64,000 bases of DNA, taken from sequence record NC_009705.1; one strand, 5' to 3'. Both the position numbers and the translations under genes were made by a program. Each line of letters opens with the position of its first letter. Within the stretch, counting starts at the first letter, position 1. The notes beneath the pieces were generated by a model. That model was not told where the DNA came from. It was given only the letters and a program-made list of their open reading frames with translations, and searched no databases. Below, piece by piece: positions 113 through 18,612 of this stretch. The stretch comes from a plasmid.

Positions 113-198
113 CGTCCGCTCTTGGCACAGAGCTGCCTGTCAGATTAGGTTAAGCTCTGTATCGTGACAATGCCAGAGCAAGTCTGAGCTAATACATA
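113..198. repeat. ~85-bp direct repeat, copy A (copy B at 5702-5786, ~94% identical, same orientation)
   Basis: Shared string tggcacagagctgcctgtcagattaggttaagctct.tatcgtgacaatgccaga.caagtctga.ctaataca read at both sites. Confidence 0.8.
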
Positions 199-253
199 TT
201 AGCTTTACAGAAGCTTGGTAATGTCTGCACACTTCACTCAAATCAAATTAGAA

Positions 254-278
254 ATGCCACTTAGTGTGGCATTTTTTC
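254..278 (+). terminator. Rho-independent terminator-like hairpin (atgccacttagtgtggcat + T-run) just after repeat copy A
   Basis: 9-bp perfect stem, 1-nt loop, followed by TTTTTT. Confidence 0.5.
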
Positions 279-389: not shown

Positions 390-776
390 TTAGACTTTGA
401 TGAACCCATAGAAAACAAAAGCATTTGCAAGAAATAAAATAAAACCCGTTAATAAAAGTGAAAACTCTACCTTAATCCAACGCACCTTATCCTTGGGTTG
501 ATTCCTGATAAAATAATAATGATCTTGATTCATCTTTCTAACAAAAATGCTTTTTATATTGAAAATCAATGGCCGTAGAAAATAAATGTCCTTTTGAAAA
601 GTGAAGAAGATCCCTCCAGCTTGAGAAATAACCACTTCATCAGGCAAGCATCCGAATTCCTTATAAAACTCGTCGCAGAGTAACTTATGCTGCTTTTTGT
701 GCAATGTGGAGTAAGCAAAGGCACCAAATATCGCCAGTACGCATAGTGGAGTCAGGATCATAAAAATAAGTATCAT
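390..776 (-). CDS. Small polytopic membrane protein, candidate immunity protein for the upstream glycine-zipper toxin
   Basis: 128 aa with about 3 predicted TM helices. Start is 2 bp after the toxin stop (operon arrangement). Confidence 0.45.
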   Translation of the reverse strand: MILIFMILTPLCVLAIFGAFAYSTLHKKQHKLLCDEFYKEFGCLPDEVVISQAGGIFFTFQKDIYFLRPLIFNIKSIFVRKMNQDHYYFIRNQPKDKVRWIKVEFSLLLTGFILFLANAFVFYGFIKV

Positions 777-777
777 G

Positions 778-2190
778 TTATTTACCTATGGTCTCGTAAA
801 TAACGTCACCAAAATACTCACCAAAGGATGATACCGTTTCACTACCTACATAACCGCCAGCACCACCGAGTATAACCCCACACGCGAGTACTCCCGCCCC
901 TCCCGCTGCCATAGTTGCTGCGCCTAAAGCGACCGTACAAACACCCATGCCAATCGCGCCTCCGGCCAGCCCTCCGGCTATACTTCCTGTGAAACTTCCC
1001 GTTTCTGTATATTTCTTCTTAGAACACTCATCCTCTCTACCCACTGAACATGCTTCGTTAACTTCATTGATAGAATGAAATGCACTAAATCCAATGCCCA
1101 CATATCCGGCATACTTCATTAACTTAACGTATTTAGCTGCACGTTCTATGTGAGTCGCATAACCGTCAATATCATTTATTCCGGTCTTATTCCACTCATG
1201 AGTAATAGATTTTGATGATAGCCCAAGCGCATCTTTTATTTTTGCATACTCGCCGAACTTCATTCCTTTATTCAAAAAACCAACTTTTAATACGGTATTA
1301 AGTTCCTTGAATAACTGACTACGCCTGACGTAAAACTGCTCTCCAATTAATGCCCCCCGTGTTAAGTAAGCATTTTTATAAGTGTCTTGGATCTCACTTA
1401 GGATTTTTTGAATGTTCTCAAAATACTTACCAACAGGATCAGCAGCAAGACCTATCCCTTTGTCAGCAAAGCTACTGAAGTTGGCGATAGTAGCGTAATG
1501 CTGATGCAAGAAATTTGCTTCTTCGTGGGATAAAGGGGCTAACGCAGCATCTATTCGCTCTTTAGCAGCTTGCATGTGGGCAATTTGCATGCTGTTTTGC
1601 TTGTCCGGATCAACCAGCAGCATAATTGAACCCGCCTTAAACTCATTGCCACTTCCATTCAATGATCGGTAGAGTTCTCGCGTCCCAGCGGGAGGTTCCT
1701 TGTTAAACAACCACGGTTCATACGATTCAGTCACCGAACCATAAGGGAGTACACAAAATCCGGCATCAACGGGTTCACGCTCTGATTGATGTGGTTTTGA
1801 ATCTTGTTGAGTGGGTGCATCCTGTGCTGGCTTCTTGGCAGCTTGTGCATGTTGCTCTGGCTCCGCTACTGTCGATGATGCAACTGGTGCCGCTTTTGCA
1901 ACATTGCCCTGATAAGGGCCATGAGAGGCCCACGTCTGCGAGGGTATAAAAAAAGCCTTACATGGACACGTCGAACGGCTATACAGCGTACTAGCCACAT
2001 AATGGCCATGCACGGATTCACCCGGATGTGCTCCCCCCACGCTGTACATACCAGAGTGTTTTCCACAAGAAACCTTACTGCCATTCACCGCCACGGGATT
2101 ACCCGCGAACTGTCTTTCTGGCATACCCTCATGAACTAACCCACCACAACTTGTCTTATCGCCCTTCACTATCCAGTATCCTATCGCCAT
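778..2190 (-). CDS. Polymorphic toxin: N-terminal PAAR-like domain, C-terminal glycine-zipper membrane-disrupting domain
   Basis: N-terminus IVKGDKTSCGGLVHEG...NPVAVNGSKVSCGKHSG is PAAR-like. C-terminus GSIAGGLAGGAIGMGVCTVALGAATMAAGGAGVLACGVILGGAGGYVG is a glycine-zipper 2-TM motif typical of pore-forming effectors. Confidence 0.5.
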   Translation of the reverse strand: MAIGYWIVKGDKTSCGGLVHEGMPERQFAGNPVAVNGSKVSCGKHSGMYSVGGAHPGESVHGHYVASTLYSRSTCPCKAFFIPSQTWASHGPYQGNVAKAAPVASSTVAEPEQHAQAAKKPAQDAPTQQDSKPHQSEREPVDAGFCVLPYGSVTESYEPWLFNKEPPAGTRELYRSLNGSGNEFKAGSIMLLVDPDKQNSMQIAHMQAAKERIDAALAPLSHEEANFLHQHYATIANFSSFADKGIGLAADPVGKYFENIQKILSEIQDTYKNAYLTRGALIGEQFYVRRSQLFKELNTVLKVGFLNKGMKFGEYAKIKDALGLSSKSITHEWNKTGINDIDGYATHIERAAKYVKLMKYAGYVGIGFSAFHSINEVNEACSVGREDECSKKKYTETGSFTGSIAGGLAGGAIGMGVCTVALGAATMAAGGAGVLACGVILGGAGGYVGSETVSSFGEYFGDVIYETIGK

Positions 2191-2202
2191 TACCTTGCCC
2201 CC

Positions 2203-2805
2203 CTAACACAAGGCCGGTAACACAGGCACCAGAAAATTATCCGGCATAGGAACACTATCGCGGCTAACCAGCATCGCCATCGACTGCGGCGTACTGACGA
2301 TTTCATCGCCGTTATCAAGCACACTGCCCACCAATGCAAAAGAAACCCCATTACTATGAGTGGCAGCATCGCCTGCACCACTTATTATCCTTGCTCGTCT
2401 GCCATCAGGGTAGACAACACAGTCCCCTACCAACGCTTTATGGATTTCCGAACCATCATCCAACTGAAATGCAGCAGGGCTACTTGCGTTCACTACCACA
2501 CCACCAAGACGAGTCCGTGATCTCTCAGTCGCAAATCGCCACAAACCGTTTACTGGATGCTGCCGCGTCCATGCTTCTTGAGCCTCAATCTGCTCCCGCG
2601 ATCCCTCCGTCATTGCGGAAAGCTCTTCCGCTGAGAAGGGGGATATATCCATTGAGGCCAACAACTCCGCACTCAGTTCGTTGGTGTACTGCTTTTCCAT
2701 GCTTTTTCCTTGTACATTCGGGGGATAATGCCCCATCTTACCTGCAACGTGACTTAAGTTAAACTTATCAGAATTCAGCGCACTAGCCATCGGCTCCAAC
2801 GCCAT
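2203..2805 (-). CDS. Hypothetical protein with C-terminal PAAR-like repeat (GDCVVYPDG...GSVLDNGDEIV). Possibly a split N-terminal part of the toxin or an accessory protein.
   Basis: 200-aa ORF ending 13 bp before the toxin start. PAAR-like Gly/Asp spacing in the C-terminus. Confidence 0.35.
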   Translation of the reverse strand: MALEPMASALNSDKFNLSHVAGKMGHYPPNVQGKSMEKQYTNELSAELLASMDISPFSAEELSAMTEGSREQIEAQEAWTRQHPVNGLWRFATERSRTRLGGVVVNASSPAAFQLDDGSEIHKALVGDCVVYPDGRRARIISGAGDAATHSNGVSFALVGSVLDNGDEIVSTPQSMAMLVSRDSVPMPDNFLVPVLPALC

Positions 2806-2959
2806 TTTCTATGGCCAGTTGTAGCCATAACCGCGTAGTCAGTTCTCTTGGCCAACTAGGTCATATGATAGAATATGGAAAATCTACATTGAGGAGTTAT
2901 TAGGCCGATCACAGCTCATTTACGAGCATTCAGCGCAAACTTATAATATCGGAGGCAGT

Positions 2960-3409
2960 ATGGATTTTCTGTACAGAGGCTATAACAGCACGATGACATT
3001 TAAAGAAGCTATGACGCCTAAATCGCCTTCACCCACGCCAGAAAGTGGTGCTGAATTCGATGATGATAGGGTTGAGTGTGGTGATCCTGATTTTACGTTT
3101 GGTCTCTCAGTGAATAATACTATTCACTCGCATGAGTATGGCGGGAATGGCGAGGCAACGGCTGGTATATCAACTACTCTGCATTTTGAAATGGCTAAAA
3201 AATATGCGCTTGGACGGAGTTCATTTGCATCTGGATATGTCATTAAAATGTCAGTTTCAGCACTTCGACATTCTGGCGTAGATATACATCCGATTAAGGG
3301 TAGGTTGACTACAACAGCCATATCTGAAGACGATGAGCACTGGATTTACTTTAATGGTCACTTCCCAGAAGAAGCCGTCGTAGAACTTATAGCTGTCTTT
3401 CGGGACTAA
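2960..3409 (+). CDS. Hypothetical protein (149 aa)
   Basis: Intact ORF divergent from the toxin operon. No recognisable motif. Confidence 0.35.
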   Translation: MDFLYRGYNSTMTFKEAMTPKSPSPTPESGAEFDDDRVECGDPDFTFGLSVNNTIHSHEYGGNGEATAGISTTLHFEMAKKYALGRSSFASGYVIKMSVSALRHSGVDIHPIKGRLTTTAISEDDEHWIYFNGHFPEEAVVELIAVFRD

Positions 3410-3517: not shown

Positions 3518-3700
3518 CTAGATAACTCGTAGGGTATCCACAACACTTGGATTTCTTTCTATCAGGCATAGCATTCTTAACGCAATGCCACTTGGTACAC
3601 GGCAATCAAGTTCCCAGCGTTGAACAGTTGCAGCGCTAGCACCAATCATTTTTGCAAATTCATACTGACTCATACCAACACTTTTGCGGATTGACTTCAC
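3518..3700 (-). CDS. XRE-family helix-turn-helix transcriptional regulator (60 aa)
   Basis: MSQYEFAKMIGASAATVQRWE is a canonical XRE HTH. Confidence 0.7.
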   Translation of the reverse strand: MKSIRKSVGMSQYEFAKMIGASAATVQRWELDCRVPSGIALRMLCLIERNPSVVDTLRVI

Positions 3701-11077: not shown

Positions 11078-11929
11078 TCACTCGCATCCCATCTCTTGAG
11101 CCAATGTTCCCTTCTGCGACTTAATGGTTTTTGCCACCTCTTCAGGTAAGGCCGACCAGATTTTCAATTTAGGGTTTGTTTTTTCTTCAATTGTATCAAC
11201 AGTAACTTGATAATCACAAAACTTCGCCGACTTAGCCGTATCTTGTTCCATCAAAAATGCAGAGTACTGACCTTCATCTGGCCCACTACCGATAAATATC
11301 ACTTTCCAATAACCACTTGGGATCTGAACAGAAGTATCAGCCGGCAATGTCGCTAAATCATAATCATATAAAGGGCCCGTAACAGTATACACGGCCGTTA
11401 TCTCAGGGCGATTTGCCAGTAGTCGTTCCTGATCCTCAAGCCGCGCCCATGCGCCTCGATTCAAATCTGATTTTTGCGGTGTGATATTGGACAAATAGTT
11501 TAGTGTCCTCCAATCATCATGCGCCGCTAAAGAACTCAACGGTGCCTGATGGCCACGATCAACGCCTAACTCCCCATTAGCTCCACTATATGCCGCAGGA
11601 GCCAGTGTATCCGTTACAGGTAAGCTTGGATCTCGCGCCCAGTTGCGGCGACGGCCACTGGCAAGAGTATCTTGAGTCACTTTATAAGCCACCCAATTTG
11701 CGAATTTAGTGCTACTGTTATTATTCAGTGTGTAAACATTTCGAATTAGCGTTTGATCACTACCCCCAGTAGGGCAGCCAACAAGGCAGTTATCAATTGT
11801 AACAACATCGTGTTCTATTGCCGTAGGGACTAAGAGTGGAGTATTAGCATAGGAAATTCTATGTTGAAATGTACAGACAAAAGATAAGGGAATAAAAACA
11901 GGCAAAAACTTAAATAAATTGAATTTCAT
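11078..11929 (-). CDS. Secreted DNA/RNA non-specific endonuclease (Serratia NucA family, DRGH active site)
   Basis: Signal peptide plus GVDRGHQAP catalytic motif. Confidence 0.65.
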   Translation of the reverse strand: MKFNLFKFLPVFIPLSFVCTFQHRISYANTPLLVPTAIEHDVVTIDNCLVGCPTGGSDQTLIRNVYTLNNNSSTKFANWVAYKVTQDTLASGRRRNWARDPSLPVTDTLAPAAYSGANGELGVDRGHQAPLSSLAAHDDWRTLNYLSNITPQKSDLNRGAWARLEDQERLLANRPEITAVYTVTGPLYDYDLATLPADTSVQIPSGYWKVIFIGSGPDEGQYSAFLMEQDTAKSAKFCDYQVTVDTIEEKTNPKLKIWSALPEEVAKTIKSQKGTLAQEMGCE

Positions 11930-12220
11930 TATTTACATTTATTTCCATTATGAATTTAACTTCTGAAAGAAAACGATTGACCATTAATTCTATCCATAAA
12001 ATCATAACAGTGCGTCTGAAAATATAATCATGCTGCTTTGAAATAAATAGCAGGCAATGTTAATTACAAGATATATCCCTTAGGCATTCTTGCATATTTT
12101 TTAGCACACAATGGAAATATTAAACAACAATAAATGAATAAAACTCTAAAAATCAGTTTTAAATAGCAATTATAGATAAACAGGGTTGAGATTACATCAA
12201 GCAACATTGAAGAACCTAGA

Positions 12221-13051
12221 CTAGAGCGCTTTATCATTGATTTTATTGATAACTTTCAAAAATTCGTAATTCGTCATATCGCTATTTATATAGCTCTTGA
12301 TATCTTTACCCATGTTATTACATAACATTATTATTTTTTCTAACTCGCTTTCAAATAAGCCAATCGATTCATTATACTTGGATAATGCAAGAGATACGGA
12401 ATATAACTGGCGTGATAATAACTTTTTATTATCAAAAGGCCAACCTGTAAAATTTGCATTACCACACATCGCATTTAAATTATGGACAAACTCCTTGATG
12501 TCTTTATCAGTGTAACTACTTACGTTATTTATAAGGCTTTTCAATTTTCGGACATCTGAGAGCAAATATTTTGCCTGAATAATATAAATCACTCGATTAT
12601 GACCTAACAGTAAATTAATCCATTTATATTTATGTTTAAGAAGAAGCTCATCAACAGCATTAAATTTAATAGTAGTTTGTTTTGAACCGTTCTTTTTAGA
12701 GTCCGAAATATACTTGTCGGTATGGTTATCATTGATATGCTTCCAGTACATTCTTGGTTTCTCATCATCCATGCAAATAGAGACCAATAAAACAATATCA
12801 TCGATAGATTGCCAATACTTCAAATTATCTAAGCCAACGGAAACATTGGGATTATTTCCGGATGTGGTCTTTATTTGAACACCGATAAAACAACCTACAG
12901 AACGTTTGTTATCATCAAAAAACTCAACCTGAGCATCTATCCCAACATCAATACTGAGCAAACGACATGGCCACTCAAAATACCGAGAAACCCAATATGC
13001 AAAATAGTTCTCACCAGCTTGGCCTATCGAACTTTTCTTTTGATAAATCAT
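12221..13051 (-). CDS. Restriction-endonuclease-like (PD-(D/E)xK, DUF4365-like N-terminus) protein with unknown C-terminal domain, very AT-rich
   Basis: GQAGENYFAYWVSRYFEWPCRLLSIDVGIDAQVEF...GVQIKT fits G..GE...W...D.G.D..vE...QxK. Confidence 0.35.
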   Translation of the reverse strand: MIYQKKSSIGQAGENYFAYWVSRYFEWPCRLLSIDVGIDAQVEFFDDNKRSVGCFIGVQIKTTSGNNPNVSVGLDNLKYWQSIDDIVLLVSICMDDEKPRMYWKHINDNHTDKYISDSKKNGSKQTTIKFNAVDELLLKHKYKWINLLLGHNRVIYIIQAKYLLSDVRKLKSLINNVSSYTDKDIKEFVHNLNAMCGNANFTGWPFDNKKLLSRQLYSVSLALSKYNESIGLFESELEKIIMLCNNMGKDIKSYINSDMTNYEFLKVINKINDKAL

Positions 13052-13572
13052 GCAGTTGATTCCTGCTGTAAGTTACTTTATTACGGTATAATACACCGAC
13101 ATGTATTTATGCCAACAACTGAGAATTTATTGAATTCACCTTAAAGAATGTACGAAGAAGCGCCAAATCCCACTTCTTGCGTTCTAGGAGTATACCTTTT
13201 TATTGCACTTATAAATCATACTAACTGCTTTTAAACACACAAGTAATAGGAGCTATATTAGTGACCAACAACTTGTATTTTATTAACAACTCGCTAAGAT
13301 TGCATAGTGCTTTGTACTGTCAGTGGTGTCTCTGACGGGGCGTCTGATTCCTCACTGGCAGCACTGCACAACCTCTTCGACGAGGTATTTTGAAAACCAA
13401 AAAGCAGGCCATCGTTAAAAGGTGGCAAGCCAATATTGAATATGAATTACACAAACGCTTAATGCGGCTGAAATCACCAAGAACAGAGTATCTGATTACA
13501 AATTCATATGAGTAAATGCTCACTAAATTTATGCAGTGATCCTTTAGCTGGGTTACAGAAAGGAAGTTTGCT

Positions 13573-14703
13573 ATGAGCGAACTGATAAAACACAGCAGTA
13601 ACTTTTTAGCCGCGATCTCGCCGGACAACGATTGCTCTATCACAGCAACGAATGACTTCGAAGCGATGATGTCATGGCTTAATGGGTATAAAAAAAAGCC
13701 AATCAATACATCAAGAAACTACGCGAGAGAAGTTAAGCGCTACCTCATTTGGCTATCATGCCAAGGTTTAACGCTAGCTCAGGTAAAAATTGAGGACGTC
13801 TATGAGTATTTTAACCTACTAGAACGCCCAACAACTGAGTGGATCATTCCAGACAAAAAGACCGACAAAATATACCCAACTCAACTGATCAAGTATGGTG
13901 GCTTATCTAATCGCTCAATCAACTATACCCACACCGTACTTGGCCTATTTTACTCATTTCTGCAAGATGCAGGCTATTTAACGAAAAACCCGATAAATCT
14001 GGTCAAAAAAGCCAGCGCAACTACTGAAAGTGAGCAATATCGGCATTTAGACTTACCCGCTTGGCAAACTCTTTGGACTTGGATACTGGGGTACGAGAAC
14101 CGCGTAATCACAGAGGATCAACCAGCCAAGATGATAAAAAAAGCGAGTCGCTACCGATGGGTGTTTGCCTTGCTCTACCATTCTGGCATTCGCTGTGCAG
14201 AAGCGGCAAACGCGCTGATGAGTGATTTAGTTCGTAAAAACAATACATGGTCTCTGAAAGTCACGGGTAAAGGAAACAAAATGCGACTTGTGACTGTAAA
14301 CAGCCTTCTGCTGAAAGAGCTGATCCACTATAGGCGCTCCCTTCTTTTAACTGACTACCCTTCAAGTCATGATGATACCCCCTTGATCGTCTCGATACAG
14401 AAAAACAGACAAGGCTCCATGACGACAAGAACACTGTCTTCATTAATCAAAGAGGTGACAGAGCTGGTATGCGCAGATTGCCAAGATGATCAAATCACTC
14501 GTCAGATTGAAACCATGACGACTCACTGGTTACGCCACACTAACGCGACACACCGTTTTATGGCAGGAGCCAGCCTTGAAACAACCCAAGATGAGTTAGG
14601 CCATGCAGACCCAAGAACAACACGTATTTATGCCAAGACATCGAACGAAAAAAGGAAATTAGATGCCGAAAGACTGGCTGATTTATTTGATGGCATCGGT
14701 TGA
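13573..14703 (+). CDS. Tyrosine recombinase/integrase (phage integrase family)
   Basis: C-terminal HWLRHTNAT...LGHADPRTTRIYAK gives the R-H-R-Y catalytic signature. Confidence 0.75.
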   Translation: MSELIKHSSNFLAAISPDNDCSITATNDFEAMMSWLNGYKKKPINTSRNYAREVKRYLIWLSCQGLTLAQVKIEDVYEYFNLLERPTTEWIIPDKKTDKIYPTQLIKYGGLSNRSINYTHTVLGLFYSFLQDAGYLTKNPINLVKKASATTESEQYRHLDLPAWQTLWTWILGYENRVITEDQPAKMIKKASRYRWVFALLYHSGIRCAEAANALMSDLVRKNNTWSLKVTGKGNKMRLVTVNSLLLKELIHYRRSLLLTDYPSSHDDTPLIVSIQKNRQGSMTTRTLSSLIKEVTELVCADCQDDQITRQIETMTTHWLRHTNATHRFMAGASLETTQDELGHADPRTTRIYAKTSNEKRKLDAERLADLFDGIG

Positions 14704-18583: not shown

Positions 18584-18612
18584 GAAAAGGGAGCCAAAGC
18601 TCCCTTTTTTAA
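18584..18612. terminator. Bidirectional terminator hairpin (aaaagggagccaaagctcccttttttaa) between convergent genes
   Basis: 7-bp stem plus flanking A and T runs. Confidence 0.55.

Follow-up and report, generated by a model that had tools for sequence, protein, structure and literature searches.

A plasmid-borne PAAR toxin of the Pse1 family in Yersinia pseudotuberculosis, with a candidate immunity gene and a second PAAR protein encoded upstream

The plasmid pVM82 of Yersinia pseudotuberculosis IP31758, for which pYpsIP31758.1 is an alias in the literature, is 153 kb in size; it is familiar as the carrier of a Dot/Icm system and for an association with Far East scarlet-like fever. We analysed 64,000 nucleotides (nt) of this plasmid (record NC_009705.1), referred to throughout as the window, and are concerned here with three closely packed, operon-like genes on its minus strand, at positions 390–2805. 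In order of transcription this cassette encodes a small, N-terminally extended PAAR protein, a PAAR protein of 470 amino acids (aa) with a C-terminal toxin domain, and a membrane protein of 128 aa. PAAR is the spike-tip fold of contractile systems such as that of type VI secretion (T6SS), and the secretion genes that share the window with the cassette belong to a type IVB system (T4BSS). The locus raises the question of how a spike-tip toxin would be delivered from such a setting, and what role a second PAAR protein could have in the process.

We consider it probable that the cassette is a plasmid-borne orphan module of a specialised T6SS effector and its immunity protein, fired by a chromosomal T6SS and depolarising the inner membrane of the target cell. 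The toxin is in itself ordinary; it carries an NCBI annotation as a PAAR protein, and the PAAR-Pse1 fusion type has been mentioned in the literature. What the cassette would add to pVM82 is an interbacterial weapon with its antidote, cargo of a kind that can arm the chromosomal T6SS of a host and penalise plasmid loss. Furthermore, the pair formed by an N-extended PAAR gene and a PAAR-toxin gene is widespread, with interchangeable toxin domains and no vgrG nearby, and its second PAAR could reveal a new loading step.

The PAAR-toxin and its candidate immunity protein

The three open reading frames (ORFs) lie on the minus strand at 2203–2805, 778–2190 and 390–776, where a preliminary description made from the letters alone had placed them. 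The 470-aa and 128-aa proteins are exact matches of ABS45690.1 ('PAAR domain-containing protein') and ABS45714.1 of strain IP31758, while the 200-aa product of the upstream ORF is an exact match of UFA64081.1 and shares a 90%-identity cluster with ABS45722.1, the 195-aa call deposited for that gene. The PAAR-like N-terminus read in the 470-aa protein by the preliminary description is borne out by its AlphaFold model, in which residues 1–93 have a predicted local distance difference test score (pLDDT) of about 89 (85–93). The top Foldseek matches of this segment in the PDB are the PAAR proteins 4jiv_D, 4jiw_D and 6p1z_D (among them VCA0105, c1882 and phiKZ gp163.1), with probability 1.0 and TM scores of 0.67–0.68 (4jiv_D, 0.68), and in the model it takes the form of a beta cone that can be superposed on solved PAAR structures. 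The Pfam family PF05488, named in that description as a check, gave an ambivalent answer, since the match is specific (E = 3.3e-5) but its 24.5 bits lie below the gathering cut-off of 27; most close homologues of the toxin, and of the small PAAR protein, have a precomputed PF05488 match. Cysteines C15, C42, C75 and C77 are invariant in a 28-sequence alignment (A1) and would fit a metal site at the tip.

Residues 94–141 form a variable linker rich in alanine, proline and glutamine, inside which the motif EPEQHAQAAKK (109–119) is conserved and P111 and Q116 are invariant (A1). The same PEQHAQxAKK, or a near variant, recurs between delivery domain and toxin in Enterobacterales, where it follows three PAAR subtypes and also the VgrG of a fusion relative (P0192), and stands directly before Tle1, before a Pse1-like domain and upstream of a Pyocin_S domain (twice in a Hafnia toxin). 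It was found in 30 of 68 PAAR-toxins encoded downstream of a small PAAR protein, the Pseudomonas toxins being without it. By analogy with VENN in CdiA, we speculate that the motif is a recombination or toxin-swapping handle, or else a processing site; in practice it offers a handle by which toxin domains can be found and swapped in Enterobacterales.

The toxin domain itself begins at D142 and runs for about 330 residues, comprising a LysM-like beta-alpha-alpha-beta unit (144–192), a helical core (197–397) and a glycine-rich hairpin (398–453). Two distant relatives have a true LysM domain at the position of the first unit, and C381 and C389 are the conserved cysteine pair of the domain. The glycine-zipper C-terminus claimed by the preliminary description is plainly present: the hairpin contains 18 glycines, 11 alanines and eight GxxxG motifs, against five GxxxG in the other 397 residues, and hydropathy places the single hydrophobic span of the toxin, of 55 residues, at 399–453. 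This hairpin is presumably the membrane-inserting part. Conservation is lower here than anywhere else in the toxin domain, the mean identity in A1 being 49% compared with 77% for the helical core.

A HMMER search with residues 140–470, run exhaustively, recovered 361 representative clusters, in which the domain is always C-terminal. Many family members are stand-alone proteins of about 320–350 aa; among 48 longer ones, 20 have a PAAR_motif, two a complete VgrG (Phage_GPD, Phage_base_V and Gp5_trimer_C) and two a LysM domain. No Pfam model matches the toxin domain in 34 family members, and NCBIfam returned no match for the cassette proteins. The Yersinia domain is 35.8% identical over 332 residues (E = 4e-60) to WP_064702971.1 of Pantoea agglomerans pv. 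betae, and both are included in alignment A5. WP_064702971.1 is Pse1b, a homologue of the cluster-encoded Pse1, and belongs to the T6SS1-dependent secretome of Pantoea (bioRxiv 10.64898/2026.08.01.741415); Pse1 homologues with PAAR or VgrG N-termini have already been reported (PMC9796082). Judged by sequence similarity, the toxin domain is a member of the Pse1 family. We also considered whether the Pantoea match was one of the PIX effectors Pse3 and Pse4, and it is neither. Pse1a, Pse1b and Pse1c of P. agglomerans pv. betae, represented in our comparison by the sequence of Pse1b and a description of Pse1a, share with the Yersinia toxin the LysM-like start, helical core, cysteine pair and glycine-rich hairpin, and a small membrane protein is encoded downstream of Pse1b. 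These proteins are cargo effectors without PAAR, Pse1a being encoded in an hcp island, whereas the Yersinia toxin is a plasmid-borne PAAR fusion with a second PAAR upstream. More distant toxins of the family (24–27% identity) occur on plasmid pHLD of Vibrio parahaemolyticus (locus L002, 5216–6948) and on about 60 other Vibrio plasmids, including those of shrimp-pathogen strains, with a 128-aa protein of two transmembrane (TM) segments encoded downstream; the N-terminal 130 residues of these Vibrio toxins matched no Pfam family.

Pse1a has been described as similar to the pore-forming domain of colicin B (HHpred, 97.2%; PMC9796082). In our own tests, hmmsearch with the family profile against PDB sequences placed colicin E1 first with a weak E of 0.16, and hhalign of a 94-sequence toxin alignment against colicin E1, or against an alignment of nine colicin pore domains, gave weak probabilities of 6–30%, always over the same region, namely the hairpin and the helix before it. 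Within this non-significant hhalign similarity the family motif AKYxKxxGyvgIg aligns with FAKYLKITGHVSFG of colicin E1, and the Pfam Colicin family has no match in the toxin domain. Since these matches are weak, we assign the toxin to the Pse1 family and leave the colicin-like fold as the report of others for Pse1a, the similarity seen here being suggestive only. The architecture is nonetheless comparable: pore-forming colicins (E1, K, Ia and B) have a helical domain ending in a hydrophobic hairpin and a small inner-membrane immunity protein encoded beside the toxin, as in the cassette. They differ in that the Yersinia hairpin is far richer in glycine and the toxin has no receptor-binding or translocation domains, its delivery being expected from a PAAR spike and not from Tol/Ton import.

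The 128-aa protein was initially described as having three TM segments, and this is only partly confirmed, because it is a membrane protein with two strong hydrophobic helices (1–25 and 101–128) and a middle segment (41–60) that is weak (Kyte-Doolittle 1.0). It matched no Pfam or NCBIfam family. A small membrane protein directly downstream of the toxin is found in four other loci, and its identity to the Yersinia protein is 50% in Shimwellia (toxin 63%), 45% in Hafnia (toxin 64%), 35% in Klebsiella michiganensis (toxin 58%) and 26% after pse1b in P. agglomerans (E = 0.007; toxin 36%); at all four the immunity homologues diverge faster than the toxins. Conserved synteny, membrane location and the fast-evolving toxin hairpin lead us to expect a cognate pair, and the 128-aa protein is therefore regarded as the candidate immunity protein.

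Several other effector types resemble the cassette. The prePAAR effectors with Eag chaperones (Tse6/EagT6) are also PAAR-toxins that contain hydrophobic helices and are directly preceded by a small accessory gene. They are characterised by an AARxxDxxxH motif, N-terminal TM domains and an adjacent DUF1795 (Eag) chaperone. The Yersinia toxin is not of this type, since its N-terminus is MAIGYWIVKGDKTSCGG, with no AARxxDxxxH, its sole hydrophobic span (399–453) is C-terminal and part of the toxin, and the upstream protein folds as a PAAR protein instead of an Eag (DUF1795) protein. Tme1 and Tme2 with their Tmi (DUF1240-like) immunity proteins likewise combine a C-terminal membrane-targeting domain containing a TM segment with downstream multi-TM immunity and occasional PAAR or VgrG fusions (PMC7046647). 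We rejected this family too: the DxxK-TM-D motif, which E. coli Tme shows as DVAK...TM...EID, is absent before the hairpin in A1 and A5, hhalign against the listed E. coli Tme WP_000908051.1 gave 5.2%, BLASTP found only the glycine-rich TM stretch, and the 128-aa protein has neither similarity to YkfM nor a Pfam match. Ssp4, Ssp6, Tse4 and Tse5-CT, compared by description only, have the same predicted outcome, non-lytic depolarisation from the periplasm countered by membrane immunity. Of these, Ssp4 is Hcp-dependent, about 315 aa long and paired with a four-TM immunity protein, and its family list names no Yersinia protein and one from Hafnia, most entries being about 310 aa long (PMC12669606).

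Table 1. Features of the cassette and its downstream flank, in window coordinates.
Feature	Position	Strand	Basis
Small N-extended PAAR protein, probably 165 aa	2203..2700	minus	ORF reaches 2805 (200 aa)
470-aa PAAR-toxin gene	778-2190	minus	ORF
PAAR domain of toxin, residues 1-93	1912..2190	minus	Pfam, AlphaFold, Foldseek, alignment A1
Junction motif EPEQHAQAAKK, residues 109-119	1834..1866	minus	Alignment A1
Pse1-family toxin domain, residues 142-470	781..1767	minus	HMMER family, alignment A5
Glycine-zipper hydrophobic hairpin, residues 398-453	832..999	minus	Hydropathy, GxxxG count
Candidate immunity gene, 128 aa	390..776	minus	ORF, hydropathy, downstream homologues
Terminator-like hairpin, 9-bp stem, 5-nt loop, then U-rich tail	252..274	minus	Read in sequence

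The small PAAR protein and two-PAAR modules

The true start of the small PAAR protein is probably M36, the ATG at 2700, giving a product of 165 aa. An AAGGA Shine-Dalgarno sequence lies 6 nt before this codon and none precedes the ATG at 2805; the homologues all start at an equivalent MxxQYTNEL, and the RefSeq call is also 165 aa. Its AlphaFold model (pLDDT 94, predicted TM score 0.86) has three N-terminal helices (11–47) followed by a PAAR cone (about 50–147), and the six best Foldseek matches in the PDB are all PAAR proteins of T6SSs or phages, among them 4jiw_D (probability 1.0, TM score 0.67), 4jiv_D, T4 gp5.4 and the PAAR proteins of phages P1 and phiKZ. The model thus supports the second PAAR-like ORF that had been proposed at this position, and predicts a PAAR cone of the same kind as in the solved structures. 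The Pfam PAAR_motif match has an E of 5.9e-4 (20.5 bits), and no cysteine or histidine is conserved among 31 aligned homologues of 155–180 aa. A precedent exists in IglG of Francisella, a small PAAR-type protein with a functional N-terminal helical extension. Both are N-extended, although IglG is a DUF4280 protein of another T6SS subtype and is not known to be paired with a second PAAR-toxin.

We surveyed relatives of the small PAAR protein in the genomes of other species, taking one genome per species; 119 were found in Enterobacterales, Pseudomonas and Xanthomonas, and 79 loci were kept. A same-strand ORF lies directly downstream in 68 of the 79, and seven of the remaining 11 are cut by a contig end. 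When 63 of the downstream proteins were scanned, 58 had a PAAR_motif match (E <= 1e-3), and their C-termini were varied, including Pyocin_S (15), Tle1-like (8), Cytotoxic (7), Col-Pyo DNase (3), Ntox44 (3) and DUF3289 (2); our own hidden Markov model found a Pse1-like C-terminus in 18 of the 68 partners. Some of these domains are of types that T6SS effectors typically carry. For example, a PAAR-Pyocin_S toxin and CdiI_5 immunity genes follow a 46%-identical copy of the small PAAR in Hafnia, a PAAR-Tle1 lipase and, downstream of it, a DUF2931 gene follow the copy in Serratia plymuthica, and a PAAR-Pyocin_S-Cytotoxic toxin follows that in Brenneria. Each cluster of small PAAR proteins pairs with one partner type, and distances among small PAAR proteins correlate with those among partner PAAR domains (Mantel r = 0.74, p = 5e-4), a value to which shared phylogeny contributes. 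These comparisons suggest that the small PAAR is a conserved delivery accessory of a class of PAAR-toxins, specific to no one toxin. Some Pse1-type PAAR toxins, in Shimwellia and Pantoea deleyi, are without it. The upstream slot is occupied in P. deleyi by an unrelated 236-aa protein with no Pfam match (L001, 7280–7990) and in Shimwellia by a 58-aa remnant of a gene of that type (L004, 9718–9894); the 236-aa protein may be an alternative accessory.

Only one PAAR protein can cap a VgrG trimer, and for this reason the second requires an explanation. One idea, which we put forward tentatively and think less likely than not, is that of an obligate two-PAAR unit made up of the small PAAR and the PAAR-toxin, a self-contained and mobile class of polymorphic toxins in Enterobacterales, Pseudomonas and Xanthomonas that is always located away from vgrG and hcp. 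Within such a unit the small PAAR might serve as a cap or chaperone on the face with which the toxin PAAR binds VgrG, up to the moment of loading, or it might select the spike; a more extreme version, also possible, has the unit loaded on no T6SS at all. Literature searches for two, tandem or dual PAAR proteins returned no description of a gene pair of this kind, and as far as we found, both the two-PAAR architecture and the junction motif are undescribed. An unusually PAAR-rich island was observed in the Enterobacter cloacae complex (L012, 8001–11816). Four PAAR-family genes (160, 176, 177 and 193 aa) stand in a row there, and the products of the last three have in common a C-terminal domain some 60 aa long; next come a gene for a 392-aa protein that matched no Pfam family and a 143-aa ORF.

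Delivery of the toxin and alternative explanations

Under the orphan-effector reading that we favour, the PAAR cone of the 470-aa protein would mount on the VgrG spike tip of a chromosomal T6SS and be fired into a Gram-negative neighbour, so that the Pse1-family domain arrives in the periplasm of the target. There the glycine-rich helical hairpin would insert into the inner membrane in colicin-like fashion and create an ion-conducting pore, with loss of membrane potential, while in the producer and its plasmid-bearing kin the 128-aa inner-membrane protein would neutralise the toxin. The 165-aa PAAR, encoded 12 nt upstream, would aid loading, either as a chaperone or adaptor for the PAAR and linker of the toxin or as an alternative tip. 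Segregants without the plasmid would then probably be left without immunity and fall prey to sibling cells, and in this way the cassette would also stabilise the plasmid. Of the T6SS clusters on the chromosome of IP31758, four are complete and two incomplete, and an isolated vgrG is present besides (PMC3686713). Together with these chromosomal systems, the PAAR fold, homology to Pse1b, PAAR- and VgrG-fused relatives and the conserved membrane-protein homologues downstream support this reading, which the preliminary description had offered as one option; the comparative evidence fits it, and the delivery route is what we infer from that evidence. Its accompanying observation that the window has no T6SS genes also holds, as a Pfam scan of 40 ORFs outside the cassette found no T6SS family, and a search with VgrG and Hcp queries found neither gene among all window ORFs of at least 50 aa.

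Several points weigh against this interpretation. There is no vgrG, hcp or adaptor gene in the window, and within 6 kb of the 79 small-PAAR modules we counted no vgrG and one hcp (by single-sequence phmmer, which could miss weak relatives), so that the connection to T6SS depends on homology and fusions only. The Pfam PAAR scores of the toxin (24.5 bits) and the small protein (20.5 bits) are both under the gathering cut-off. Similarity to colicins was weak in our tests, and the AlphaFold model of the toxin domain is poor (pLDDT < 50 over most of residues 233–470), too poor for a fold search of the C-terminus. Finally, the standard model of one PAAR per spike offers no explanation for a cassette that encodes two.

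Four other accounts of the locus were weighed against the orphan-effector reading. Of these, a diffusible bacteriocin resembling colicins or pyocins appears improbable. It would enter by an outer-membrane receptor after release by lysis or by a contact-free T6SS, using the LysM-like unit or the linker for uptake. Contact-free action has a precedent in the Y. pseudotuberculosis T6SS effector Tce1. Sister toxins of the same module type carry Pyocin_S translocation domains, and a colicin-like toxin domain is the reported feature of Pse1a (PMC9796082); yet the cassette has no lysis gene, and the toxin has a PAAR cone at its N-terminus, no recognisable receptor-binding or Tol/Ton-box domain and no Pfam colicin domain. 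We see only a slim chance that the two PAAR proteins tip a phage-tail-like particle, be it a tailocin, an extracellular contractile injection system (eCIS) or a prophage spike. Their folds do match the phage spike tips of T4 gp5.4, P1, phiKZ and KP1, PAAR subtypes common to eCIS and T6SS are known from a survey (PMC8651086), and an integrase or other mobile-element gene lies near the modules of Serratia, K. michiganensis and E. cloacae. Against this, no tail, sheath or baseplate gene was seen beside any annotated locus inspected, the fusion relative P0192 has the VgrG-spike domains Phage_GPD, Phage_base_V and Gp5_trimer_C, and Pse1b is T6SS-dependent.

That the toxin is instead a substrate of the plasmid's own Dot/Icm-like T4BSS is an attractive notion, because a preprint places this system nearest to the bacterial-killing T4BSS of Pseudomonas putida IsoF and describes it as lacking relaxase and oriT (10.1101/2024.06.14.598817), and its genes, unlike any of a T6SS, share the window with the cassette. 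We nevertheless give it scarcely any credence. Three-gene modules homologous to this one sit on the chromosomes of Hafnia, Klebsiella and Shimwellia, amid metabolic genes and without a T4BSS, and related pairs of small PAAR and PAAR-toxin occupy similar loci in Serratia and Brenneria; moreover, the spike-tip fold belongs to contractile systems, relatives of the toxin domain are fused to VgrG, and secretion of Pse1b requires a T6SS. The remaining account, also raised in the preliminary description, is that the two PAAR ORFs are a single gene broken by a frameshift at 2190–2203. A gap of only 12 nt between the upstream stop codon (2203–2205) and the toxin ATG (2190), and the PAAR motifs in both ORFs, made this conceivable, but the comparative data refute it and its probability is negligible. 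Dozens of genomes have each of the two as a gene of its own and of full length: homologues of the whole 470-aa protein across many genera share the same start methionine, and the small gene encodes a distinct protein in the 31 aligned homologues, followed by a separate PAAR-toxin gene in the 58 of 63 loci noted above. Each product is modelled as a complete PAAR fold, and the toxin ATG is preceded by GGGGGCAAGG, its own G-rich Shine-Dalgarno sequence.

Flanks of the cassette and the plasmid neighbourhood

Between the toxin stop codon (778–780) and the ATG of the candidate immunity gene (776) there is a gap of 1 nt. The terminator-like hairpin in Table 1 sits 116 nt past the immunity stop codon (RNA fold -12.1 kcal/mol, z = -1.98) and may end the cassette transcript; it was not listed by a consensus promoter and terminator scan, the counts of which were at shuffle level, and the same scan found no minus-strand promoter upstream of 2700. 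Nucleotide searches of plasmids and E. coli genomes returned no match to the cassette itself. The G+C content is 49.5% over the small PAAR gene (window 2001–3000), compared with 43.6% for the toxin gene and about 39% for most of the window; the difference points to a donor of richer G+C for the whole cassette or, at the least, for its first gene.

The preliminary description placed the cassette on a 'T4BSS conjugative plasmid', of which the first part stands and the second is unsupported. Pfam identified DotM_C, T4BSS_DotI_IcmL, T4BSS_DotH_IcmK, TrbI (DotG-like), T2SSE (a DotB-like ATPase), T4SS_TraI and TraG-D_C (a TraG/DotL-like coupling protein) in the window, and among the other large ORFs two Rep3 initiators, ParM and ParA. 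The ORFs scanned in the 64-kb window included no relaxase, and pVM82 is stated to have neither relaxase nor oriT in the preprint cited above. The T4BSS region occupies window positions 18609–50608, and given its reported kinship with a killing system and the missing relaxase and oriT, the plasmid may, by analogy, carry two interbacterial weapons.

Divergent from the cassette is a 149-aa ORF (window 2960–3409, plus strand) whose match to the NarE ADP-ribosyltransferase toxin family falls short of the threshold (E = 2e-4; 22.1 bits, cut-off 27), adjoined by a 60-aa HTH_3/MqsA-like protein (3518–3700, minus strand); from their sequences, the pair may consist of a further toxin and the regulator or antitoxin that goes with it. 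On the other side, downstream of the cassette, a segment some 90 bp long (window 113–203) matches unannotated DNA on three K. michiganensis plasmids at 86–88%, and its core (116–160) matches four E. coli chromosomes at 96%. The segment could be a mobile or repeated element of small size, and the only Rfam match near it, to a small RNA, is at chance level. Further along the plasmid, genes for an Endonuclease_NS protein (a secreted-type non-specific DNA/RNA endonuclease, E = 7e-46), a DUF4365 protein and a phage-type integrase are clustered at window 11078–14703, in what looks from its gene content like an element integrated in the plasmid.

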